From positions 1 through 26,322 of the IMG/VR virus record IMGVR_UViG_3300045988_013119: a stretch of DNA of 26,322 nucleotides. One strand, 5' to 3'. Below the pieces are notes generated by a model. It ran no database searches. It was not told the origin of the DNA and was given only the letters and a program-made list of their open reading frames with translations. The position numbers were made by a program, and so were the translations under genes. This stretch comes from a virus (Duplodnaviria; Heunggongvirae; Uroviricota; Caudoviricetes). Of the stretch, positions 338 through 23,267 are shown piece by piece (within the stretch, counting starts at the first letter, position 1; each line of letters opens with the position of its first letter).

Positions 338-355
338 AGGCCGCAAGAGCGGCCT
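338..355. terminator. Hairpin AGGCCGC-AAGA-GCGGCCT between convergent ORFs, candidate bidirectional terminator
   Basis: A 7-bp GC-rich stem with a 4-nt loop sits between the stop of 74-331 (+) and the stop of 354-1082 (-). T/A-rich tracts flank it on both sides. Confidence 0.45.
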
Positions 356-3072: not shown

Positions 3073-3097
3073 AAAAACAAGGCCGCGAAAGCGGCCT
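3073..3097 (-). terminator. Rho-independent terminator ending the minus-strand late operon
   Basis: On the minus strand: AGGCCGC-TTTC-GCGGCCT followed by TGTTTTT, downstream of the 46-aa ORF stop. Confidence 0.65.
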
Positions 3098-11075: not shown

Positions 11076-13546
11076 CAGAATCCCCCAACAGTAAGGCGAG
11101 GAATAACGGCAAGAACAGACAGTGGCAACGGGTCAAGCTGACGGATTCTTACACGTCCGTTTTTGCCCCAGTTACTGTCCAGTTTCACTTCTACTTTTCC
11201 GGTAGCATCATCAACAGAATCATCGTAGAACTCGAATTCACGCTGTGGATATTCGTACCATTTACCGCCGGGCGTAGTCGCCCAGATGCCGCGACTGGCA
11301 TTCACAACCAGAGTAACGGACGGGATCACCTGTTTTTTGTCCAGCAGCGTTTCCTGTCCGCTAATGTTGATATCCAGTGTTTCGAATTCAGCAGTTATTG
11401 GCAGGCCGATGTGCACAACAGCCCCCGGTGATTCCAGCGTGACGGCACCTCCGGAAACCACTTTCTGTGGTTCCACGTTCGCATCAGAGAGAATGTTTAC
11501 GGTCTGGCCTTCAAGATGAGACATGCCTCCAAATGTCCGGCGCGCCATCTGCCAGTTCGTGGTGGCCGCATTCCTGAGGGATGGCGGGACGTTCCTGTTA
11601 GCACGAACCACTACAGCGGTATTGCTGGTTACAGAAATAATGTCGCAACGTAATTCTTTTGACACTTCATCGCCAGTATCAGGATCAGTTCCGGTATAAG
11701 GGAACTGTAGTTGCGCACCAACATCACTACTGGTGAAGTACGCACCACCAGAAACACTGATTGTATATTCCGCGCGGTAATCCCATTCACCAGAACCACC
11801 AGTGATGGTCATCGTTCTGTCAGACGTATTTCTTCCATCATAGCTAAGGCCAGAATCAACAAAGAAAGCATCTTCATCGCTGGTAAATAAACGGCTGGAC
11901 AGTCTCTCGATGTATCTCACTGTTTGCCCGTTAACGGTTCTGTTAACGACGAAATACACCGCATCTTCATTGCCTTCGCTGATACTGCATGTGCTTTCAT
12001 ATTTTCCGGTACTGGATTGTGGTGCCCATGCAAAAACCTGCTGATCACGCAAATAGGTCATCACCAGTAATTTACCGTCATCACGAATGCAGAAGGCGCT
12101 GGAGTAAGGGACAATCGAGAAGCACCAGTCAACAATGCTGTGCTTCTGAAAAAGATGATTGGCAAGGATGGTCAGGTCGTTCCCCTGATAGCCGTCAACA
12201 TCGAATGAGTAGGCCAGATCACGGACAACACTGCCTTTCTCCTGGACGAACAGAGCAATATTCGCCACGGCAATTGGTGGGACATTGCTCGAGCCATTTG
12301 ATCCCTGAGAGCTGAATGCAAATGATGATGGGGTAAGCACTTTGTTCTGGTCGCCAGTGATGACGTACTCACCTCCGGAAGTCAGCGCCACCAGCGAACC
12401 AACATCAATCAGGTGACGGATCTCATTAACCTGACGCCCGGCATAGGTGTAGATAATTCTGTCGTCATCCTGCGTAGGATTGCTTTTGCCAAAATCCTTA
12501 TAATCCCCGGTACGGCTGGCCCAGATAGTCTGAGGGAACGCAGTCGATGCGGCGAAGTAAAGGCGTTGTTGATAATAAACAACAGTGCCAGGATAACCGT
12601 TAATACTGTTCCAGGCATATTTAGCCCATTTATAGCTGGCATTATCCTCGCCAACTACCTGCGAAGGGATATAGGAAATCACCTCGGCAGTTGCAGTAGT
12701 TCCATTTGCAGCAGAGATACGGGCAATGCCAAAACCACTGTGCAGATACTCCCACTCAATGCCGGTATCATCATCACCGGATCCGCCCCAGCCATCCCAT
12801 GATGTGCCTTCTGTATGCGAAGGGCGCAAAGTGCCTGTTTTGCCTGCTGTAACGGCGCGATAGTAGTTACTGTCTGCACGGCGAATATCGCCAATCGACG
12901 TACTCTTACTGGTTTCCCATACCGGCACAGAATCCACTGCAGGCTGTTCCAGATAGAACAATTTGCCTACCTGCTCCGCGCCAAAAATTGAGGCGCTTGC
13001 CGTTAACGTAATTGTCCCGGTGCTGGCGCTGGCATAAACCGTCACTGACTCGTCAATATTGATATCTTCAAATGGCCCGTTCTTCGTTACCACATCAACC
13101 AGTTGCCAGTTGTCATGCGCATAGCGGCGCAACTCTTTCGGCGGGTATGCCGGATGAACCAGCGTAAGCACGTCTGCGCTTTGCGTGAATTTAATTCGGA
13201 ACAGATCGGCTTCAGTATATGGCGTGGCAATTTCATAAATAACATTGCTGCTGTTCAGCACCAACGCACCATCTTTGATAACGCGCATGTACTGGTGTCC
13301 GAACTCCAGAGCATAAGTCTGAACCGTCGAGAACTGGAACGGGATCAGGCGGCATTTCCGATTTGGGTATTTGGCGGCACCGACAAAACGCGTACCAGGT
13401 CGATTCTCAACGCCGCCATACTGCCGCACGATAAAGTTATCGCACTTGCGCAATGCCACCTGGTACTTCGCCATGTCGATACGACCGTACAACGACGGTC
13501 CAATCTCACCACCGGCAAAGCTGGGCTGGATCCAACTGATAGCCAT
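11075..13546 (-). CDS. Tail tubular protein B-like (nozzle) protein, 823 aa
   Basis: Size and position after the tail-tubular-A-like gene. The N-terminus (MAISWIQPSFAGGEIGPSLYGRID) has the same style as the T7 gp12 N-terminus as I recall it. Confidence 0.65.
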   Translation of the reverse strand: MAISWIQPSFAGGEIGPSLYGRIDMAKYQVALRKCDNFIVRQYGGVENRPGTRFVGAAKYPNRKCRLIPFQFSTVQTYALEFGHQYMRVIKDGALVLNSSNVIYEIATPYTEADLFRIKFTQSADVLTLVHPAYPPKELRRYAHDNWQLVDVVTKNGPFEDINIDESVTVYASASTGTITLTASASIFGAEQVGKLFYLEQPAVDSVPVWETSKSTSIGDIRRADSNYYRAVTAGKTGTLRPSHTEGTSWDGWGGSGDDDTGIEWEYLHSGFGIARISAANGTTATAEVISYIPSQVVGEDNASYKWAKYAWNSINGYPGTVVYYQQRLYFAASTAFPQTIWASRTGDYKDFGKSNPTQDDDRIIYTYAGRQVNEIRHLIDVGSLVALTSGGEYVITGDQNKVLTPSSFAFSSQGSNGSSNVPPIAVANIALFVQEKGSVVRDLAYSFDVDGYQGNDLTILANHLFQKHSIVDWCFSIVPYSSAFCIRDDGKLLVMTYLRDQQVFAWAPQSSTGKYESTCSISEGNEDAVYFVVNRTVNGQTVRYIERLSSRLFTSDEDAFFVDSGLSYDGRNTSDRTMTITGGSGEWDYRAEYTISVSGGAYFTSSDVGAQLQFPYTGTDPDTGDEVSKELRCDIISVTSNTAVVVRANRNVPPSLRNAATTNWQMARRTFGGMSHLEGQTVNILSDANVEPQKVVSGGAVTLESPGAVVHIGLPITAEFETLDINISGQETLLDKKQVIPSVTLVVNASRGIWATTPGGKWYEYPQREFEFYDDSVDDATGKVEVKLDSNWGKNGRVRIRQLDPLPLSVLAVIPRLTVGGF

Positions 13547-14154
13547 CAGGACAACCTCGCAATGGTAAACTCGTCAACCGGTGGCTGTGGTTCCTGTGAT
13601 TCATTCTGGCTATGCGAGCCAGCACTAAGAATCACGCGATTGTACATATTGAGGGCAAACGTACCGAGGTCTGCATTCCCAGTGAGCGCCATGTTAATAG
13701 CTGCCGCAAGACGCCAGGCCAACGCCTCCATAAAAATGGCATCAAACATGTTCACATCTGAAACGCGAGAGACATACTTGAGCCATGCCTGCGGCTGGTC
13801 TGTGTAGATCAACTTTCCTGTTCCGTTGGTGTCTGCACCAACTTCGTACTGAACGCGCATTGCTGCTGTTGGATTGCGTACACCAGGAAGCATAATTTCA
13901 GTAATGCGCAGACAATCGGACGGGTACTGGTACGCATATTCCCAGTCAGGCGGTGGATTGCTCGTATCTGCAAGCGCCACGCGTTTGGTAGCAAAGTTCC
14001 AGTCAAAATCAGAAAGAACAGCATCACGGCAGGCCTCAAAGTGCAGCGAACATTCCCCCGCTTCCTTGCTGGCTTCCGTCAGGCTGTTAATACTGCGGCT
14101 GTTGCCAATATTGGACAGCGCACGATTACAGATCTCTACTACAGAGGCCATCAC
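13546..14154 (-). CDS. Tail tubular protein A-like (adaptor) protein, 202 aa
   Basis: Position between the head genes and the 823-aa gene. Loose N-terminal resemblance to T7 gp11 by memory (ALSNIGNSRSINSL vs ILASIGEPPVSTL). Confidence 0.6.
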   Translation of the reverse strand: MMASVVEICNRALSNIGNSRSINSLTEASKEAGECSLHFEACRDAVLSDFDWNFATKRVALADTSNPPPDWEYAYQYPSDCLRITEIMLPGVRNPTAAMRVQYEVGADTNGTGKLIYTDQPQAWLKYVSRVSDVNMFDAIFMEALAWRLAAAINMALTGNADLGTFALNMYNRVILSAGSHSQNESQEPQPPVDEFTIARLS

Positions 14155-14474
14155 TCACCTCCGTTACCGTACAGAGTTTCAGCCGCTGATTTTTCTACAT
14201 CCCTGGAAACAGGAGCGATCGCCATATCAGTGATCTGCAGATCGGCGCTGCGATTAACACCATCGTCAGTTTCTCTGGCAGACAGGCCTCGAATAACAGC
14301 CTTTGCAGTTATCATCACTTCTGTTCCGACGCCCTGAGGTTGCGCCTTCAGCTTATTCAATGTGTCGTTATTAAGAGTGATGCACAGCTCCCACGGGTAT
14401 TCATCGCGAGTTCTGGTTTCTCCGCTCTCATCCTGGTAGCTGTCAGTGCCGGTTTTGAGGTTTACGAGTTCCAT
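14151..14474 (-). CDS. Small structural protein, 107 aa
   Basis: ATG at 14474 with AGGAG 5 nt upstream; the track's 14480 start is a GTG. Four-nt overlap with the downstream gene. Confidence 0.7.
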   Translation of the reverse strand: MELVNLKTGTDSYQDESGETRTRDEYPWELCITLNNDTLNKLKAQPQGVGTEVMITAKAVIRGLSARETDDGVNRSADLQITDMAIAPVSRDVEKSAAETLYGNGGE

Positions 14475-14485
14475 ATACACTCCTG

Positions 14486-14507
14486 CAATAAAGGGGCCGA
14501 AGCCCCT
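14486..14507 (-). terminator. Intra-operon hairpin with U-tract (AGGGGC-TTCG-GCCCCT then TTTATT on the minus strand), possible attenuator
   Basis: GC-rich 6-bp stem with a 4-nt loop followed by a T-rich tract, between the 111-aa and 107-aa genes. Confidence 0.35.
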
Positions 14508-14524
14508 TGTCGGATTCGCGAGGC

Positions 14525-14860
14525 TTACACGCCCAGTTCTTTACGCTTATCTGCGATCTTCTCTCGGAGCGTTTCGGCTTTAGCGTTATGGTGTGGCTTC
14601 TCGTTAAAGAGCAATTCGTACTCTTCACGGAGCTTATCCAGTTCACCATCATCTGACACATCGTTGATGATTTTGGTGCTGGTTGCTGCCATAGACACCT
14701 TTCCTGCTACCTTTGCTTTTGCCTGTCTGGCTGCATCGTTAACAGGTTCCAGTGCGCTACCAGGCTCACCTTCGTATTCGATTTCTGCCCCCTCCGGCCA
14801 CAGTGTGTTATGGATATGAGAGAGGCGCAGAACGCGGTATCTTGGTTTCTCACCTGACAT
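14525..14860 (-). CDS. Small head/connector-associated protein, 111 aa
   Basis: ATG at 14860 with AAGGTGA RBS; the track's 14869 start is a GTG. Charged protein with a coiled-coil-like C-terminus. Confidence 0.7.
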   Translation of the reverse strand: MSGEKPRYRVLRLSHIHNTLWPEGAEIEYEGEPGSALEPVNDAARQAKAKVAGKVSMAATSTKIINDVSDDGELDKLREEYELLFNEKPHHNAKAETLREKIADKRKELGV

Positions 14861-14870
14861 CGATATCACC

Positions 14871-15308
14871 TTAACCAGTTACTTTTGAGCGGATCGGGTA
14901 CGGCGTATTGGCATCAACATCCAGACTGATACCCGCAGTGAATTTGCCGGCCGTTAGTGGGCCAGTTGCGACGGAGTAGTTAACACGCAGATATCGCTGA
15001 ACACCGGCTGGCACCTTTGCAGAAACAACTCGCTTACCTGCTGTCAGGGTGGCCTTTGCCAACGCACCACTATCATAAATAGTGGTCCAAGAGCTGTTAT
15101 TCTCACTCGTCTGCAACTGGATGTTTACAGTTGCCTCACCACTTGCCGTGGCGGCTTCGTTAACCAGCACCCAAAACTCAAGCGGGTAACCCACACCGAT
15201 ATCGCGACGGTTTCCATCAATTGGACCGAGATCGATTACGTCAGTAGAAGCCGCGGTATTCGTAACCGCCTGAGCTTCGGAGAACATCAACAGTTTGTCG
15301 GTGATCAT
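14871..15308 (-). CDS. Candidate capsid decoration/accessory protein, 145 aa
   Basis: Immediately downstream of the major capsid gene. Composition suggests a beta-rich fold. Preceded by a stem-loop (GTGGGTC-N6-GACCCAC) and GGAG RBS. Confidence 0.7.
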   Translation of the reverse strand: MITDKLLMFSEAQAVTNTAASTDVIDLGPIDGNRRDIGVGYPLEFWVLVNEAATASGEATVNIQLQTSENNSSWTTIYDSGALAKATLTAGKRVVSAKVPAGVQRYLRVNYSVATGPLTAGKFTAGISLDVDANTPYPIRSKVTG

Positions 15309-15359
15309 CTTCTTTCTCCATTAGTGGGTCTGTTACGACCCACAGGTTAATAACAGGCG

Positions 15360-16346
15360 TTACACCACGCGGGCTTCTGTTTCCAGAAGCGCATCAGTTT
15401 CACGGATTGGTACACCACGGAATGACGTCCACCACTCGCCTTCAGTCTCTTTTACGCTAATCGCCAGAGATGTTTTCTCCAGAGACTGCAGATCAAGAGC
15501 CTGGCCTACAGTGCGGTTCATGTAGAACACCGGGCGACCCATGCCACGGTTTGGAATGCGATGCAGTGCTTTAACCATCAACTTCGCAATATTTGCGGCA
15601 GAGGAAGGTTCTGAAAGATTGCTGACATCGATGTTTGCAATGCGAACAACATAACGCCAGTCACGCAGAGCAAGTCCGTTGTCCCATTTGTAATGGGTAC
15701 GGTAGCCTTCGTACTTGCCGCCATTAGCATCTTCCAGTGTCACCTGGCCTTTATCTTCCATCTGAATGCCAGCCTTCTGCCCTTTCGGGAAGATGCCATG
15801 CACGGTGTTTTCGCCCCACACCACTAACCAGATTGAGGTGTTATCTGTGCCCGTGCCACCAGCATCAATGATGTTCTGAGCATTACCTGCAGACAGGCTG
15901 GAATAGCGGGAGGACAGTCCCATAAACTGCTGAGGGTTAACGCTGGAATCACCATAAAACAGCGTCTGCGCCATCTGCTGATTCATCGCTTCAATAAATG
16001 CGCGGTCTTCAGACAGGCGGAATTCGGCGGTATTGCCGTTCAGATCAGCCAGTGACTTATCGACTTCAGCATAGGTTTCCAGCATGCCAACGGAATCGGT
16101 TACCTGCACTGTGGTTGATTTGCTTGGCTGTACGCCATAGTTCAGCAAACGCCAGGTAGCTGAAGGTAAACCAGAACGAATGGTGGTTCGGTGTCCGGTA
16201 GGAAGGTTCCCTTCGACAAAAGGCATATCCTGAAGGATCGGGTTAGTTTGACCGAGAAGCTCGATAATCTTATCGACTTTCCCGTTTGGATCGACGCGCT
16301 TACCCCAGTCAGCCAGCGTTAGCGCAGTTAAGCCTTTAACAGCCAT
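15360..16346 (-). CDS. Major capsid protein (probable HK97-fold), 328 aa
   Basis: Follows the scaffold gene. GAGAGG RBS is correctly spaced for the second ATG (16346) rather than the track's 16352. Size and position are typical. Confidence 0.8.
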   Translation of the reverse strand: MAVKGLTALTLADWGKRVDPNGKVDKIIELLGQTNPILQDMPFVEGNLPTGHRTTIRSGLPSATWRLLNYGVQPSKSTTVQVTDSVGMLETYAEVDKSLADLNGNTAEFRLSEDRAFIEAMNQQMAQTLFYGDSSVNPQQFMGLSSRYSSLSAGNAQNIIDAGGTGTDNTSIWLVVWGENTVHGIFPKGQKAGIQMEDKGQVTLEDANGGKYEGYRTHYKWDNGLALRDWRYVVRIANIDVSNLSEPSSAANIAKLMVKALHRIPNRGMGRPVFYMNRTVGQALDLQSLEKTSLAISVKETEGEWWTSFRGVPIRETDALLETEARVV

Positions 16347-16360
16347 TGTCATTTCCTCTC

Positions 16361-17062
16361 TTATTTGCCATAGAGCACTTCGGCCGCACTACGCTGGCCT
16401 TCATTACCACCGGTGACCATGCCATCTTCAGACATCGCCTTTCCGATTTTCACGAACGTTTTGACCAGGTCAGGGTGATTACCCAGTCCGGTGGTGTTCA
16501 GATATTCTTTGAGTTCAGGTGTCCCGAACTGGTCAAGCGCACGCTGTGCGGCGCTAAGGTTAGAAATCAACTTGTCGCCACCGATTTCTTTGTCAGCTTT
16601 TACATCCGCAGCCCACTGCTCGGTTGTTTTCTGCCAGGCTTCTGCCTGGCGCTGCTGAACACCTGCCAGAATCTTCGGATAAGCATCAACCAGCTTTTGC
16701 GCTTGCTCGTTGGTCAGGTTTAGTTCTCGCGCCACCGGCTCGAATTCCTTCAACGCTTCTGTATCCAGCTCTACGCCTTCGGCAGCCTGAAACTCGTACT
16801 TCTCAGGCGCACCCTCTGGTTTATCGCCGCCCTTTTTTTCATCCTGCTTATCGTTTTCAGGCTTTTTGTCATCAGCAGGTTTATCGCCATCAGAAACAGG
16901 TTGTGGCTTATCACCTTCCTGTTGTGATGGATCACCAACTGGAGCAGGGTTATCATCTGCATGCGCTGACGGTTCTGACGCAGCCGGAGCTGCCCCACCA
17001 TCGACTTGTTGCTCATTGCAAAGACGGCGATACAGCAAACGCTCAAATAAACTCATGATCAC
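16361..17062 (-). CDS. Scaffolding protein, 233 aa
   Basis: Highly acidic, Lys/Asp/Pro-rich low-complexity N-terminal half (DKPQPVSDGDKPADDKKPENDKQDEKKGGDKPEG) and helical C-terminal half, between portal and capsid genes. Confidence 0.7.
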   Translation of the reverse strand: MIMSLFERLLYRRLCNEQQVDGGAAPAASEPSAHADDNPAPVGDPSQQEGDKPQPVSDGDKPADDKKPENDKQDEKKGGDKPEGAPEKYEFQAAEGVELDTEALKEFEPVARELNLTNEQAQKLVDAYPKILAGVQQRQAEAWQKTTEQWAADVKADKEIGGDKLISNLSAAQRALDQFGTPELKEYLNTTGLGNHPDLVKTFVKIGKAMSEDGMVTGGNEGQRSAAEVLYGK

Positions 17063-17355
17063 TCCTGTTCACTGGCCTCTTTGGCCATCTTCAAATACTG
17101 TTCAGGGCAATGCGCCATAACGCGCTGAAACAGTTCCAGCGCCAGATTGCGTTGCCCCTCATTAAATGCCATTGCCATAGCATCCATCGGAGAGATAGCG
17201 GAAAACACCCGGCCTTTCTCCAGCACCGACCAGACAACGCGACGCCCCTGTTCACTGCTCATGACAAAGCGAATGTCATCAATTTCACGCTGTGCCATGT
17301 CACGTTGCTTACGGGCGTTTTCTTCTTTCAGTTGATCGTCTTCGTAATCTGTCAT
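17059..17355 (-). CDS. Small protein between portal and scaffold genes, 98 aa
   Basis: Four-nt overlaps with both neighbours, consistent with translational coupling. Confidence 0.7.
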   Translation of the reverse strand: MTDYEDDQLKEENARKQRDMAQREIDDIRFVMSSEQGRRVVWSVLEKGRVFSAISPMDAMAMAFNEGQRNLALELFQRVMAHCPEQYLKMAKEASEQE

Positions 17356-19031
17356 TGTGATTGCCCACCCTGACCACTAACTGCATTCGCCATAGCTGAC
17401 AACACACTCGGATCCGAAGTTTTAGCTTCGCTTAGCGTCTTGGCCCCCTGTGCCGCCGCCATCCCCATCGCCATCATTTGTTGCTGCTGTTGTTGCTGTG
17501 CCCGTTGCTGGCGAGCCTGCTCAACCTGTTCCTGCGGAACAATGACGGTTGGAGACACTCCGGACATATCAGCGAATGCATCGATCGCCTGATCAACGTT
17601 GAGTTTGTCGAGAGCTTCTGGTTTCGCTTGCGCAAGTTGACCAATGAAGTTAACCGTGGACGCCAGACTGGACAGGCCGATAGACTTCTGCGCCTGAGCC
17701 ATGACGGAAATGTATTCGACCTTCAGGGGCATGCCTTCCATCGCGTCAGGCGGTGGCGGCAGCATGTTTTTGCGCACCATCATCGAGAAAGCGCGGTCAA
17801 TGAGAGGATTAAGACATTCGTCGTTCAGACGCTCCAGAACCGGCCCCAACATCAGAAGTTTTTCTTCTTTCATTTCGATCACCGCTTCAACAGGCATCGA
17901 GCGGGTATTGATGTTCTGCAACATCATGAACAGATCGACAAAGTAGGCGCTGTTAATGATTTGACGAGTGTCCTGAATGTCTGCCACCAAATCTGCTGTA
18001 CTGGGGTTAACCAGATAAGCAGGCCTGAAGCCATCCTGACCAGTAATCTGATCGATATACGTGATGTCGCCAGGAAGAAGGGAGGCGCGCTGATTCTTGA
18101 GGGAAGTCGGAGCAACCATCGGCGGATTGGTGGCTTTATCAATCAACTGCGACTTGCGCTTCTGGAGAAGCTGCAATGCCTTAACAGGTCCAAGCGCCAG
18201 CATACCCGGGCATGATGATCCATAAACATCTTCGCCGTTAACTTCCCAGCGCGGAGCCATAATTGGAAACTCATCGAATCCGGACTCACGCAACAACTTG
18301 TCGTTATCTCCACCAACCTCGTAATAAACCGATTTGAATGGCTTGTTCTTGCTATCCAGCTTCGATGTATCGCGGTCAATGTTCGGGTAAACCGAATGCA
18401 TCACTTCGATCCACTTCTCGTAGGTGCCGCTTTCCCACATGCTTTTTACGGATTCGCTGACGTTATTTAGCCCGAACTCCTGAACAAGCTGACGAACAGT
18501 CATAGAGAACTTGCGAAAACAGGTGTCAACACTGCCACGAGGTGAGTTAGCCAGGTAGTAACTGCCTATCGGGAATGGCATTGTGCGAATGATGTCCTCG
18601 TCATCCTCCAGCACTGCCATTGCACCAGTGCTGTATGTGCCGAGGCTTCCGTATAACTGCGGAAGAGACTGGTAGAGATTCGACTTATTGAACATATCGT
18701 TCATGCGGTTCTGAACTGCCTCAAGCCACAACTTAACAGGGCCATAATCCATCATTTCAGGATCTGGCGTAGCCAGGCGAAACCACGGACGCGCGGGGCT
18801 TGTGATGCCTGACATCATGCCGCTGGCGAGAGTGCGCGCCGCCATAGTCCCGGTCGAATCAATAATGCGTGTATTGCGCCGATCGTTACGGTTGGCCTCA
18901 GAAGTCAGAAAGCGGGAACCACGCGGGTTGATGTAATCACTCAACTCGCGCCAGTGCGGCTCGAACGACTGACGCTCGCTTTCAAGTTGTGCGAACTGTT
19001 TGTTCAATCGCTCTTTAGTTGTTTCCGCCAT
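17352..19031 (-). CDS. Portal protein, 559 aa
   Basis: Large ORF immediately upstream of scaffold and capsid with GGAG RBS. The Gln/Ala/Gly-rich C-terminal tail (QQRAQQQQQQQMMAMGMAAAQG) resembles the T7 gp8 C-terminus by memory. Confidence 0.8.
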   Translation of the reverse strand: MAETTKERLNKQFAQLESERQSFEPHWRELSDYINPRGSRFLTSEANRNDRRNTRIIDSTGTMAARTLASGMMSGITSPARPWFRLATPDPEMMDYGPVKLWLEAVQNRMNDMFNKSNLYQSLPQLYGSLGTYSTGAMAVLEDDEDIIRTMPFPIGSYYLANSPRGSVDTCFRKFSMTVRQLVQEFGLNNVSESVKSMWESGTYEKWIEVMHSVYPNIDRDTSKLDSKNKPFKSVYYEVGGDNDKLLRESGFDEFPIMAPRWEVNGEDVYGSSCPGMLALGPVKALQLLQKRKSQLIDKATNPPMVAPTSLKNQRASLLPGDITYIDQITGQDGFRPAYLVNPSTADLVADIQDTRQIINSAYFVDLFMMLQNINTRSMPVEAVIEMKEEKLLMLGPVLERLNDECLNPLIDRAFSMMVRKNMLPPPPDAMEGMPLKVEYISVMAQAQKSIGLSSLASTVNFIGQLAQAKPEALDKLNVDQAIDAFADMSGVSPTVIVPQEQVEQARQQRAQQQQQQQMMAMGMAAAQGAKTLSEAKTSDPSVLSAMANAVSGQGGQSQ

Positions 19032-19679: not shown

Positions 19680-19756
19680 GTGGCATTAGCTCAGTTGGAC
19701 AGAGCAACCGCCTTCTAAGCGGTTGGTCGCAGGTTCGAATCCTGCATGCCACGCCA
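19680..19756 (+). tRNA. tRNA-Arg (anticodon UCU), phage-encoded, argU-like core with a divergent acceptor stem
   Basis: Cloverleaf read by hand: acceptor GTGGCAT/ATGCCAC, D-arm GCTC-AGTTGGACA-GAGC, anticodon arm ACCGC-CTTCTAA-GCGGT (anticodon TCT), variable TGGTC, T-arm GCAGG-TTCGAAT-CCTGC, discriminator G, encoded CCA. Confidence 0.85.
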
Positions 19757-19799
19757 GAATCACGCCTAAGGACCGTGATGCCAGAAGTTCCAGGGGCTT

Positions 19800-19841
19800 G
19801 GCGGTGATGGTTTCCCTTGAAGGACTATCACCGCCCTTTTT
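19800..19841 (+). terminator. Terminator downstream of the tRNA (GGCGGTGAT ... ATCACCGCC then CTTTTT)
   Basis: 9-bp perfect stem with an 18-nt loop followed by a T-run. Confidence 0.5.
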
Positions 19842-19919
19842 ACAGCAGGACGCCATTGCGATGACTTCATGCTGTAAACCAGTACAGCCACGGAAGGCAT
19901 AACTCATTGCTTCCAGTTC

Positions 19920-19943
19920 GCCCGGTTCGCCGGGCATTTTTTT
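19920..19943 (+). terminator. Strong hairpin plus U-tract (GCCCGG-TTCG-CCGGGC then ATTTTTTT) abutting the RBS of the 140-aa ORF; terminator or attenuator
   Basis: 6-bp GC stem with a UUCG tetraloop and 7 T. Only about 11 nt separate the T-run from the ATG at 19955. Confidence 0.6.
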
Positions 19944-22579: not shown

Positions 22580-22605
22580 AAAATAAAGCCGCCATAGTTG
22601 GCGGC
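22580..22605 (-). terminator. Terminator-like hairpin (GCCGCC-AACTAT-GGCGGC then TTTATTTT on the minus strand) immediately upstream of the late operon
   Basis: 6-bp GC stem and U-tract between the early-region genes and the small terminase start, like a lambdoid tR-prime/antitermination arrangement. Confidence 0.5.
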
Positions 22606-22646: not shown

Positions 22647-22658
22647 GTGACATGTCAC
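22647..22658. repeat. 12-bp perfect palindrome GTGACATGTCAC, copy 3
   Basis: Exact 12-mer overlapping the stop codon of the 22655-22993 gene, about 40 nt upstream (in the transcription direction) of the hairpin at 22580-22605. Confidence 0.9.
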
Positions 22659-22993
22659 ACTATTAATTTCGTTTCATGCCAGCCTTTAGTCACCCAGCAT
22701 TGCGAGTCACCATTACACGGGCATGAATTAACTGGAACTCTCTCGCCGCACTTACCGCAACGTTTTCTGCTGATCGATTTTATACGCCCGCGCACGCGTG
22801 CATCATCCTGGCGGATCAGTAACGCTATATACTCACCAAATTCGTAAGGCGCACGCCCGGGGCGACGCGTGGCACAGTTACGCTCCAGCATTTCAATTTC
22901 CTGAGCATCAAGCACAATCTCCAGCTTACGCACACCAGATGCAGCTTGTCTGGCTCTCTGAGCGGCTTTGCGCTCTGCTGCTGATTTAGCCAT
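22655..22993 (-). CDS. Basic protein with C-terminal Cys cluster (zinc-finger-like), 112 aa; candidate late-gene regulator by position
   Basis: ATG at 22993; the track's 22996 start is a TTG. The C-terminus reads CGKCGERVPVNSCPCNGDSQC. It is the last early gene before the terminator-like hairpin and terminase. Confidence 0.7.
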   Translation of the reverse strand: MAKSAAERKAAQRARQAASGVRKLEIVLDAQEIEMLERNCATRRPGRAPYEFGEYIALLIRQDDARVRGRIKSISRKRCGKCGERVPVNSCPCNGDSQCWVTKGWHETKLIV

Positions 22994-23267
22994 CAATATT
23001 TACCTTTATCGCGAACACCTTTACCGGTTTATCACCGAAGTGCGGATGTGTGATTGTCTTGATTTCATATCCGTCATACGGGACGTCAATTCTTCGGCTG
23101 GAATCGTCGCGCTTCGGATATCCCTTTGTGATAATCAGGCGGTCATACTCCCGGAACATAATTCGCTTATTCCAGTAGTCATTACACAGGCGATACTCTT
23201 CCGTTTTCTCTCCACGAATCATGGCATCGAAGTATTCACCTTTGACGGCAAGTTGCAGGTTAGCCAT
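22986..23267 (-). CDS. ASCH/DUF3850-like small protein, 93 aa
   Basis: Start at the TAATG overlap with the upstream gene, GGAGG RBS. The motif KGEYFDAMIRGEKTEEYR matches my recollection of the DUF3850 family. Confidence 0.7.
   Translation of the reverse strand: MANLQLAVKGEYFDAMIRGEKTEEYRLCNDYWNKRIMFREYDRLIITKGYPKRDDSSRRIDVPYDGYEIKTITHPHFGDKPVKVFAIKVNIDG

Follow-up and report, generated by a model that had tools for sequence, protein, structure and literature searches.

Two conserved hairpins in the capsid-to-tail region of a phiV10-like late operon: a candidate leaky terminator and a candidate mRNA-stability element

The head-gene region of this phage raises the question of whether two small inverted repeats between late genes are functional RNA structures and, if so, what each of them does. 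The window (the whole stretch of DNA that was analysed, 26,322 nt) belongs to a phiV10/epsilon15-like (Uetakevirus) prophage of E. coli with the late genes on the minus strand. It shares 98% DNA identity with phiV10 and 100% with a prophage of E. coli 85.0412, and prophages of this type are present in 532/5426 complete E. coli genomes (about 1 in 10). Relatives of phiV10 serve as O157 typing and reporter phages, and knowing where the late transcripts end and how they are protected aids engineering, e.g., the choice of a reporter insertion site that spares capsid and tail dosage. The operon from gp3 to gp17 consists of 15 consecutive genes over about 16 kb and has just two intergenic gaps longer than 14 nt. 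These gaps are 51 and 50 nt long, and each contains one hairpin (Table 1). The first-pass annotation had reported a GC hairpin at 14486-14507 after the 111-aa gene, which is essentially right apart from the refined arm positions. It had also reported a 7-bp stem-loop between the capsid gene and the next ORF, which is present 2 nt from the earlier placement at about 15322-15341.

Table 1. Hairpins, neighboring genes and translation signals in the capsid-to-tail region of the window.
Feature	Positions	Strand	Evidence or remark
Major capsid protein gene (epsilon15 gp7 / BPP-1 Bbp17 type)	15360..16346	-	phrog_212, E 4e-113; annotated in phiV10 and by PGAP
Capsid-gene stop codon	15360-15362	-	hairpin 2 begins 16 nt later
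Hairpin 2, GUGGGUC-GUAACA-GACCCAC	15324..15343	-	inverted repeat: arms 15324-15330 and 15337-15343
Shine-Dalgarno GGAG of cement-protein gene	15316..15319	-	read from sequence; ATG 15308-15306; 4 nt after hairpin 2
145-aa Bbp16-family capsid cement protein gene (epsilon15 gp8 homologue)	14871..15308	-	Pfam PF21190, E 6e-49; PDB 3J4U chain H, E 3e-29; PGAP name
111-aa gene (epsilon15 gp9 homologue), last before hairpin 1	14525..14860	-	phrog_590 only
Hairpin 1, AAGGGGC-UUCG-GCCCCUU	14491..14508	-	inverted repeat: arms 14491-14497 and 14502-14508, UUCG loop
Hairpin 1 U-rich tract, UUUAUUGC	14485..14492	-	after G+C core; first two U double as last two stem bases
Shine-Dalgarno AGGAG of gp10-like gene	14480..14484	-	read from sequence; ATG 14474-14472
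107-aa gp10-like 'capsid staple' gene, first after hairpin 1	14151..14474	-	PDB 3J40 chain N (epsilon15 gp10, capsid protein), E 3e-21; Pfam PF21628
Tail tubular protein A-like gene (epsilon15 gp11), first tail gene	13546..14151	-	phrog_394 'tail protein', phrog_9239 'tail tubular protein'

Most of the genes around the hairpins can be assigned. The product of the 111-aa gene gave no match in Pfam, NCBIfam or PDB. The gp10-like gene is missing from 30-34 of 239 related loci (about 13%) and from phage EC.W1-9, and its Shine-Dalgarno sequence is kept as CAGGAG or UGGAG in relatives. The assignment of the first tail gene agrees with the epsilon15 gp11 record, where T7 tail tubular protein A is noted as an HHpred match. 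From gp10 to gp17 the genes overlap or abut, with gaps of -4 to 12 nt. A consensus scan, which unusual promoters could escape, found a single promoter-like site on the minus strand downstream of hairpin 1 (10639-10610), and the total of such sites in the window is below chance expectation.

Hairpin 1 resembles an intrinsic terminator. Its 7-bp stem is built from a core of five G-C pairs and two A-U pairs, is closed by a UUCG tetraloop, and in the RNA is followed by UAUUGCAGGAG. The folding energy is -12.7 kcal/mol (z -3.1). The hairpin begins 16 nt past the UAA stop of the 111-aa gene on the transcribed (minus) strand and ends 6 nt upstream of the AGGAG of the gp10-like gene. The tail contains 5/8 U when counted from the G+C core, but 3/8 U after the full 7-bp stem, and on the latter count a consensus terminator scan did not flag it. 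The scan did not flag hairpin 2 either. At the evident operon-end terminator (3080-3097) the U-tract is better (6/8) than the interrupted one of hairpin 1, and this difference fits a hairpin 1 terminator of partial strength. The U-rich stretch sits just upstream of the Shine-Dalgarno sequence, and its conservation could reflect translation instead of termination.

The hairpin 1 structure is found in all 63 distinct intergenic variants drawn from the 239 related loci. Mean folding energy is -13.1 kcal/mol in this family and -4.7 kcal/mol in shuffles, and each variant is significant on its own. There are 13 distinct G+C stems, including the compensatory forms GGGGC/GCCCC, GGGGCC/GGCCCC, GGAGGCC/GGCCUCC and GGGGGC/GCCCCC, and the loops are all tetraloops, mostly UUCG. 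The 8 nt after the G+C core contain 4-8 U in 63/63 variants. The sequence of the tract varies and reaches UUUUUUUU in the Pantoea clade. In epsilon15, the same slot holds CGGGGCC-AUUC-GGCCCCG followed by CUUUUCUAU, annotated in GenBank as a rho-independent terminator, and in BPP-1 it holds CGGGGGC-UUCGU-GCCCCCG followed by CUUUUUCUUG, directly 5′ of the tail tubular A gene. Limnohabitans phage DC33 likewise has a terminator here, between the capsid gene(s) and tail tubular A. In BPP-1, DC33 and the loci without gp10, the hairpin lies exactly between the capsid module and tail tubular A, whereas in the window itself the gp10-like capsid gene intervenes.

Hairpin 2 is a perfect 7-bp stem with a GUAACA loop, followed by UAAUGGAG, and has no U-tract. 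Its folding energy is -13.6 kcal/mol (z -4.4). In 46/49 distinct variants of this slot there is a hairpin far more stable than shuffles (family mean -13.5 vs. -3.0 kcal/mol). The family includes 31 distinct stems, with GNRA-type and other stable tetraloops frequent among the loops. Stems range over 7-12 bp and loops over 3-7 nt, but the geometry is fixed: the hairpin begins 14-16 nt past the stop codon and leaves 4 nt before the GGAG. The 4-nt spacing holds in 32/37 enterobacterial variants, and spacings of 2-3 nt occur only with an extended stem. No U-tract follows the hairpin among 37-40 enterobacterial variants, so hairpin 2 is not a canonical terminator. A Pseudomonas prophage clade has a post-capsid hairpin 15 nt from the GGAG with a U-rich tail, which points to 3′-end formation or protection of the capsid mRNA. 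At the same slot, BPP-1 and Burkholderia phage KL4 have a G+C hairpin without a U-tract, which in BPP-1 lies some 27 nt from the start codon and keeps no fixed offset. Epsilon15 lacks the hairpin.

The hairpin 2 stems also covary. In the alignment 80-81% of cells are paired, compared with 71% in shuffles (0/500 shuffles as high), and double changes occur at 4-5 of the 7 pairs. The MAFFT alignment of 41 spacer variants left about half of them one column out of register, owing to a 1-nt difference in the upstream spacer. From this alignment RNAalifold returned 4 pairs only (-0.86 kcal/mol), and a covariance model built on it retained the same register. The pair counts are thus underestimates, and we relied on alignment-free hairpin calls. 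Whole-spacer folding energies did not discriminate sense from antisense for the hairpin 2 spacer. The strand signal is found in the internal positions that are not Watson-Crick pairs: read on the mRNA strand, 12 variants have G·U at such positions and none has A·C. This count comes from a stricter stem-extension rule than one running into the flanks, which yields spurious A·C pairs.

Neither hairpin is exceptional by folding energy alone. They come only 12th and 15th among the 557 simple hairpins of the window's minus strand, and hairpins of comparable stability occur within genes. Perfect 7-8-bp inverted repeats number five in the 1.2 kb region, and the terminator-scan total for the window is at chance level. 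All of this would suit two functionless chance repeats, but we consider that reading the least credible of all. The 16 kb contain just two sizeable gaps, each with one of the hairpins, pairing is held across many stem sequences and from Pseudomonas and Bordetella to E. coli elements, and covariation exceeds shuffle and slide controls. Position and conservation thus raise both hairpins above chance. It is also very improbable that the repeats act as DNA, i.e., as sites for dimeric proteins or as cruciforms, or that they act on the antisense strand. The perfect palindromic arms are compatible with DNA recognition, and the whole-spacer energies at hairpin 2 leave room for it. The many stem sequences of hairpin 2, with loops variable in both length and sequence, do not form a conserved sequence-specific site, however, and the G·U intermediates on the mRNA strand correspond to A·C in DNA or antisense RNA, with the reverse never seen. 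At hairpin 1, folding is more favorable on the sense than on the antisense strand (Wilcoxon p = 0.001), and the U-tract in the window is confined to the sense strand.

Several known classes of element were also considered. Rfam 15 covariance models gave no match up to E = 10 on either strand of positions 14300-15500. The sequences of both hairpins are single copy in the 26-kb window, even at 3 mismatches, which rules out a palindrome of the REP/BIME type dispersed within it. RNase III needs stems longer than 7-12 bp, and an RNase III site was ruled out on that account. A sequence-specific protein operator was likewise ruled out, as stems and loops are not conserved in sequence.

The comparative evidence supports the view that both hairpins are selected RNA structures on the late mRNA. 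Our preferred reading, to which we give a probability of roughly 0.55, takes hairpin 1 for an intrinsic, leaky terminator at the junction of capsid and tail genes and hairpin 2 for an intercistronic mRNA-stability hairpin. The data show anatomy, position, and conservation with covariation on the mRNA strand, and from these we infer termination, leakiness and stabilization. Both stem-loops would form in the late polycistronic minus-strand mRNA. Hairpin 1, with its UUUAUUG tail, would act as a Rho-independent terminator for host RNA polymerase at the end of the capsid module, and the tail and internal-virion genes downstream would be reached by read-through. The terminator would have to be leaky because the downstream genes abut or overlap without an evident promoter of their own. 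Its likely effect would be less transcript for the low-copy tail genes, together with a protected 3′ end on the capsid-module transcripts. Published work describes inefficient terminators as a means of balancing gene expression in phages, with T7 as the demonstrated case (PMC9163698). A literature search for transcript mapping (Term-seq, RNA-seq) in epsilon15/phiV10 phages found no relevant study. Hairpin 2 would be a stable intercistronic hairpin, unspecific in sequence and not a terminator. Most likely, it is a barrier to RNA decay that keeps capsid mRNA abundant. It lies just past the stretch that a ribosome halted at the capsid stop codon would cover and shortly before the next ribosome-binding site, so that it can remain folded on translated mRNA. 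Hairpins of this kind are ordinary, routine regulatory elements, and they open no long-standing question.

The first-pass annotation had proposed partial terminators or stabilizing hairpins that set head-to-tail protein stoichiometry. The terminator part stands for hairpin 1, which has intrinsic-terminator anatomy and an annotated counterpart in the epsilon15 slot, and does not extend to hairpin 2, given its missing U-tract. The stoichiometry part finds a basis where hairpin 1 is at the capsid/tail border, i.e., in BPP-1 and about 13% of relatives. In the window, the gp10-like capsid gene just downstream means that there is no clean head/tail division, and its position fits poorly with a dosage step purely between capsid and tail. 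A stoichiometry step at hairpin 2 is not supported, given the proteins on either side of it. In BPP-1 the Bbp16-type cement protein is equimolar with the capsid protein (PMC3863775), so a step-down in expression between the two genes would not serve stoichiometry.

Hairpin 1 may instead not terminate at all during the lytic cycle. If antitermination of the lambda Q kind acts on the late transcription complexes, hairpin 1 could be a 3′ stabilizer of processed RNA and its U-rich tail, immediately 5′ of the Shine-Dalgarno sequence, a translation enhancer for the next gene. We regard this as unlikely. It draws on a strong terminator-like hairpin, GCCGCC-AACUAU-GGCGGC followed by UUUAUUUUG (22605-22588), that stands at the very start of the packaging/late genes (terS), directly after the gene for a 113-aa PHROG 'transcriptional regulator'. 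With this hairpin beside a putative regulator, late antitermination is possible, and hairpin 1 would then be read through. An attempt to identify the regulator as an antiterminator yielded only its PHROG name: there is no match in Pfam, NCBIfam or PDB and no detectable similarity to known antiterminators in these databases. Further, terS-terL is separated from the head-tail operon by an opposite-strand region with a tRNA and terminators, so that the polymerase arriving at hairpin 1 would be a different complex from any modified at terS. The full motif of hairpin plus U-tract is kept from Bordetella to E. coli phages, for which selection for termination is the simplest explanation.

The closest competitor to a decay barrier at hairpin 2 is a role for the downstream cement gene, which we consider possible but clearly less probable than our preferred reading. 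Hairpin 2 could be a protective 5′ stem-loop that remains after RNase E cleavage in the A/U-rich upstream spacer. Alternatively, as an insulator or standby-site module, it could hold the ribosome-binding site accessible and make translation of the cement gene independent of ribosomes that terminate on the capsid gene. 5′ stem-loops such as that of ompA stabilize mRNAs against RNase E and provide a precedent. The 3′ base of the stem is constantly 4 nt from the GGAG despite the varying stem and loop lengths, and the predicted fold leaves the Shine-Dalgarno sequence of the cement gene unpaired. This fixed distance suits a translation-linked role at least as well as it suits a decay barrier. The two hairpins also bracket exactly the cement and gp9 genes. 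Against a role for the cement gene stand the larger offset and U-rich tail in the Pseudomonas clade and the position of the BPP-1 hairpin, and gp8 of epsilon15 is expressed without such a hairpin. A combined version treats the hairpins as a pair. RNase E cutting in the A/U-rich spacer past the capsid stop might release an mRNA of some 850 nt that encodes the cement and 111-aa proteins, with hairpin 2 as the protective 5′ stem-loop and hairpin 1 as the 3′ end. We find this improbable. If true, the message would be doubly capped and long-lived, a capsid-accessory transcript conserved from BPP-like to epsilon15-like podoviruses, and the setting of cement output would depend on neither the capsid gene nor the tail genes.

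The nearest counterpart of hairpin 1 as a leaky terminator is the epsilon15 gp9-gp10 terminator (NC_004775, stem_loop 7664-7686), whose annotation is itself a prediction. It shares the slot, orthologous neighbors, a G+C stem, a tetraloop and a U-rich tail that is followed by the gp10 Shine-Dalgarno sequence. The stem-loops themselves differ, with AAGGGGC-UUCG-GCCCCUU in the window. The epsilon15 element also includes an A-tract, and its annotation covers both strands, while hairpin 1 is one-directional. In T7, the leaky terminator Tφ separates gene 10 (capsid) from gene 11 (tail tubular protein A). Like hairpin 1, it is internal, lies past the capsid gene(s) and precedes tail tubular A and B genes that need read-through, and the gene downstream of the hairpin 1 region encodes a T7 gp11-type protein. 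The two have no sequence relationship. Tφ acts on T7 RNA polymerase; phages of the phiV10/epsilon15 group lack their own polymerase and would rely on that of the host. Unlike at Tφ, the cement gene, the 111-aa gene and (downstream) the gp10-like gene intervene around hairpin 1. These parallels suggest that an internal terminator at the capsid/tail-tube junction may be an old feature common to podoviruses with T7-like tail tubes, despite their different RNA polymerases.

Intercistronic stem-loops that stabilize mRNA include the REP hairpins between malE and malF and the hairpins after pufBA in the Rhodobacter puf operon. Hairpin 2 resembles these in being stable, in lacking a U-tract and in standing between cistrons after the gene whose product is needed most, and its structure rather than its sequence is conserved. 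It differs from them in that it is not a dispersed repeat, is tightly fixed relative to the next ribosome-binding site, and precedes a gene whose product is probably needed in equal amounts. BPP-1 has the same order as the window throughout, from the capsid gene through a hairpin without a U-tract (after bbp17), the cement gene, a small gene and a hairpin with a U-tract (between bbp15 and bbp14) to tail tubular A. Neither hairpin is annotated in the BPP-1 record. The first lacks the fixed 4-nt offset from the Shine-Dalgarno sequence seen in the window. BPP-1 has no gp10-like gene, so its putative terminator, unlike that of the window, falls exactly at the capsid/tail border.

Across window 13500-17500 the DNA matches Escherichia phage phiV10 and related phages (genus Uetakevirus, epsilon15 group) at 98% identity, and window 14100-15700 is 100% identical to a prophage in E. 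coli strain 85.0412. Of 5426 complete E. coli genomes, 532 carry some version of the latter stretch. The late genes are on the minus strand, and the table lists the five genes from capsid to tail tubular protein A in the direction of transcription.

Genes, hairpins and conserved motifs located in the window
Feature	Position	Strand	Match or sequence
Major capsid protein	15360-16346	minus	phrog_212
Motif from capsid stop codon	15351-15362	minus	UAAC(G/C)CCUG
Hairpin 2 arms	15324-15330, 15337-15343	minus	GUGGGUC-GUAACA-GACCCAC, then UAAUGGAG
145-aa Bbp16-family capsid cement protein	14871-15308	minus	Pfam PF21190; PDB 3J4U chain H, E 3e-29
111-aa protein (gp9 type)	14525-14860	minus	no PDB, Pfam or NCBIfam match
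Motif 3′ of gp9 stop codon	14517-14527	minus	UAAGCCUC
Hairpin 1 arms	14491-14497, 14502-14508	minus	AAGGGGC-UUCG-GCCCCUU, then UAUUGCAGGAG
107-aa homologue of epsilon15 gp10, "capsid staple"	14151-14474	minus	PDB 3J40 chain N, E 3e-21; PF21628
Tail tubular protein A-like	13546-14151	minus	phrog_394, phrog_9239
113-aa PHROG "transcriptional regulator"	22655-22996		no Pfam, NCBIfam or PDB match
Annotated terS start	22614		TTG
terS hairpin	22588-22605	minus	GCCGCC-AACUAU-GGCGGC, then UUUAUUUUG
tRNA-Arg (anticodon UCU)	19680-19756	plus	ARAGORN and PGAP
83-aa ORF	19686-19937	minus	
Terminator-like hairpin 3′ of tRNA-Arg	19800-19835	plus	strong
Terminator-like hairpin closing late operon	3080-3097		AGGCCGC/GCGGCCU, tail UGUUUUU
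Terminator-like hairpin	338-355		AGGCCGC/GCGGCCU

The first-pass annotation had proposed two inverted repeats in the head-gene cluster as partial terminators or stabilisers that set head-to-tail stoichiometry. Both are found in the sequence, on the minus strand, with the coordinates of the second 2 nt off, and the interpretation was right in part only. Hairpin 1 has a folding energy of -12.7 kcal/mol (z -3.1). Hairpin 2 lacks a U-tract and folds at -13.6 kcal/mol (z -4.4). By thermodynamics alone the two do not stand out: of the 557 simple hairpins on the minus strand of the window they come 12th and 15th, intragenic hairpins of equal stability exist there, and the same 1.2 kb holds five perfect 7-8-bp inverted repeats. 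A consensus terminator scan called neither hairpin and gave no excess over shuffles. Their distinction comes from position. Across gp3-gp17 (15 genes, ~16 kb) neighbouring genes overlap or are no more than 14 nt apart, except at two gaps of 51 nt and 50 nt, which hold one hairpin apiece. Judged by their conservation in relatives, both are real functional elements, and both belong to known kinds of element.

We compared loci encoding relatives of the cement protein, drawn from GTDB genomes, IMG/VR and annotated phages. The spacer 3′ of the gp9-type gene occurs as 63 distinct sequences among 239 loci, all 63 with a G+C stem and tetraloop (UUCG in 44; GGUU, GGAU or GGUC in a Pantoea clade). Their mean energy is -13.1 kcal/mol vs -4.7 for dinucleotide shuffles, significant in 63/63, and the eight bases 3′ of the G+C core contain 4-8 U in every variant. 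There are 13 distinct stems, including the compensatory forms GGAGGCC/GGCCUCC and GGGGGC/GCCCCC, and the following tract also differs between variants (UUUAUUG, UUUCUUG, UUUUUUUC, UUCUUUUU, UUUCUUCC). Epsilon15 has CGGGGCC-AUUC-GGCCCCG followed by CUUUUCUAU in the same slot, and its GenBank record labels this a rho-independent terminator (a prediction). The distant relative BPP-1, a Bordetella phage, has CGGGGGC-UUCGU-GCCCCCG followed by CUUUUUCUUG between its small gene bbp15 and the tail tubular A gene bbp14. A terminator is also present in Limnohabitans phage DC33; Burkholderia phage KL4 and Pseudomonas phage Shamal have none at this slot. Since the stem-loop and U-rich tail are kept across the family, epsilon15 and BPP-1, hairpin 1 is, on comparative grounds, a conserved element with the shape of a canonical terminator.

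In the window hairpin 1 is followed by the gp10-like capsid gene and so does not mark a clean boundary between head and tail genes. No gp10-like gene exists in 30-34 of the 239 loci, in the phage isolate EC.W1-9 or in BPP-1, KL4, Shamal and DC33; a review calls epsilon15 gp10 expendable for maturation and infectivity (PMC7602432). In all relatives without it the spacer leads directly into the tail tubular A gene, and the terminator is present in this shortened layout in E. coli loci, EC.W1-9, BPP-1 and DC33. The ancestral order was probably capsid, cement, small gene, terminator and tail tube. This terminator position matches that of Tφ in T7, located between gene 10 and gene 11. Inefficient terminators in T7 serve to balance expression (PMC9163698).

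Downstream of hairpin 1, gp10-gp17 are packed without gaps, and a promoter scan of this stretch gave no convincing promoter-like site. We therefore infer that transcription has to read through the terminator, which must be either leaky or overridden. With an interruption and 5/8 U, its U-tract is weaker than that of the evident operon-end terminator at 3080-3097 (6/8 U), which would fit partial strength. Late transcription could instead be under antitermination control, as suggested by a strong terminator-like hairpin at the annotated 5′ end of terS (22605-22588), directly after a putative regulator. However, the regulator belongs to no recognisable family, and an opposite-strand region with a tRNA and terminators lies between terS-terL and the head-tail operon. 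The searchable literature holds no transcript mapping for this phage group. For hairpin 1 the preferred reading is a leaky terminator at the junction, its counterpart already annotated in epsilon15, with the tail genes probably reached by read-through. The proposed partial terminator survives for hairpin 1 in this form, qualified by the capsid gene downstream of it.

The capsid-to-cement spacer occurs as 49 distinct sequences. In 46 the hairpin is far above shuffles in stability (mean -13.5 vs -3.0 kcal/mol), and the other three have one mismatch inside the stem. The 31 distinct stems include GUGGGUC/GACCCAC, GUGGGCC/GGCCCAC, AUGGGCC/GGCCCAU, AGCGGGGC/GCCCCGCU, GGCGGGC/GCCCGCC, AGCGGCCCG/CGGGCUGCU and GUCGGCC/GGCCGAC, and the loops are frequently the stable tetraloops GUAA, GUGA, GAAA and GCAA. 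Covariation was counted on a MAFFT alignment of 41 variants (A1) and a covariance-model-based alignment (A2), both partly out of register. In A1 and A2, 80-81% of helix cells are paired vs 71% in shuffles (0/500 as high), double changes occupy 21-24 cells vs 5-6 expected and affect 4-5 of the 7 pairs, and the structure outscores all slid controls. With pairs called by a strand-neutral rule, 12 distinct variants (about six independent events) have internal non-Watson-Crick positions that are G·U on the mRNA strand, and none is A·C, which points to selection on the sense RNA and not on DNA or an antisense transcript. Spacing is tight: 14-16 nt separate the stem from the capsid stop codon on its 5′ side and 4 nt from GGAG on its 3′ side (2-3 nt only with an extended stem), despite stems of 7-12 bp and loops of 3-7 nt. 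No enterobacterial variant has a U-tract. BPP-1 (GGGGGCGG-GCGA-CCGCCCCC) and KL4 also have G+C hairpins without a U-tract after the capsid gene. In a Pseudomonas prophage clade the slot is occupied by another hairpin, with a U-rich tail. In epsilon15 the spacer has been lost completely, and only 12 nt separate the two genes. The motif from the capsid stop codon is invariant in 41/41 enterobacterial spacer variants (A1 columns 1-10), though non-coding; the one 3′ of the gp9 stop codon is well conserved too.

Several roles can be considered for hairpin 2. A protein operator is disfavoured by conservation that is sequence-unspecific and biased to stability, a canonical terminator by the missing U-tract, and an RNase III site by the short stem, short stems being unsuitable for this enzyme. 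The hairpin is placed ~15 nt past the capsid stop codon, about as far 3′ as a terminating ribosome extends, and stops just short of the next Shine-Dalgarno sequence. Such placement would allow folding to persist on heavily translated mRNA and so would suit a physical barrier to RNA decay. We favour protection of the 3′ side of the capsid-gene mRNA, and a link to the capsid 3′ end gains support from the terminator-like hairpin of the Pseudomonas clade. Given its fixed 4-nt offset to GGAG, the hairpin would fit about as well an action on the cement cistron that follows, where it could be a stem-loop protecting the 5′ end or an insulator of the ribosome-binding site. The BPP-1 cement protein is essential and equimolar with the capsid protein (PMC3863775), so a dosage step here would be useless for stoichiometry, and the role first suggested for hairpin 2 is weakened. 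From sequence, it is a previously unannotated, ordinary kind of intercistronic RNA hairpin with several candidate roles.

The gp10-like gene, present in the window at 14151-14474 (minus), is missing from relatives that include the loci L007 (1677-1732), L022 and L029. The Bbp16-type cement gene is kept in all gp10-less relatives and, as gp8, in epsilon15. This makes it questionable which protein truly forms the capsid cement in epsilon15-type phages, whose cement density was attributed to gp10 in 3J40, a model at 4.5 Å. The terS hairpin, which the 113-aa regulator gene directly precedes, lies within the annotated 5′ end of terS; it may control the packaging and late genes by attenuation or antitermination, or terS may have been annotated from a wrong start. 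The tRNA-Arg, which overlaps the 83-aa ORF, runs against the direction of the late genes; the phiV10 RefSeq has hypothetical protein PhiV10p04 at the matching position. The hairpins at 3080-3097 and 338-355 share the same 7-bp stem. The segment that they flank contains a BRO-N gene and the gene of a YafO-family toxin, and may be a cargo cassette with duplicated terminators as its boundaries. The record of DC33 (GenBank PQ492659, our locus L253) places it in the Inoviridae (filamentous phage); this line looks wrong, because the 39-kb genome of DC33 has its capsid, cement and tail-tube genes in a block like that of BPP-1.
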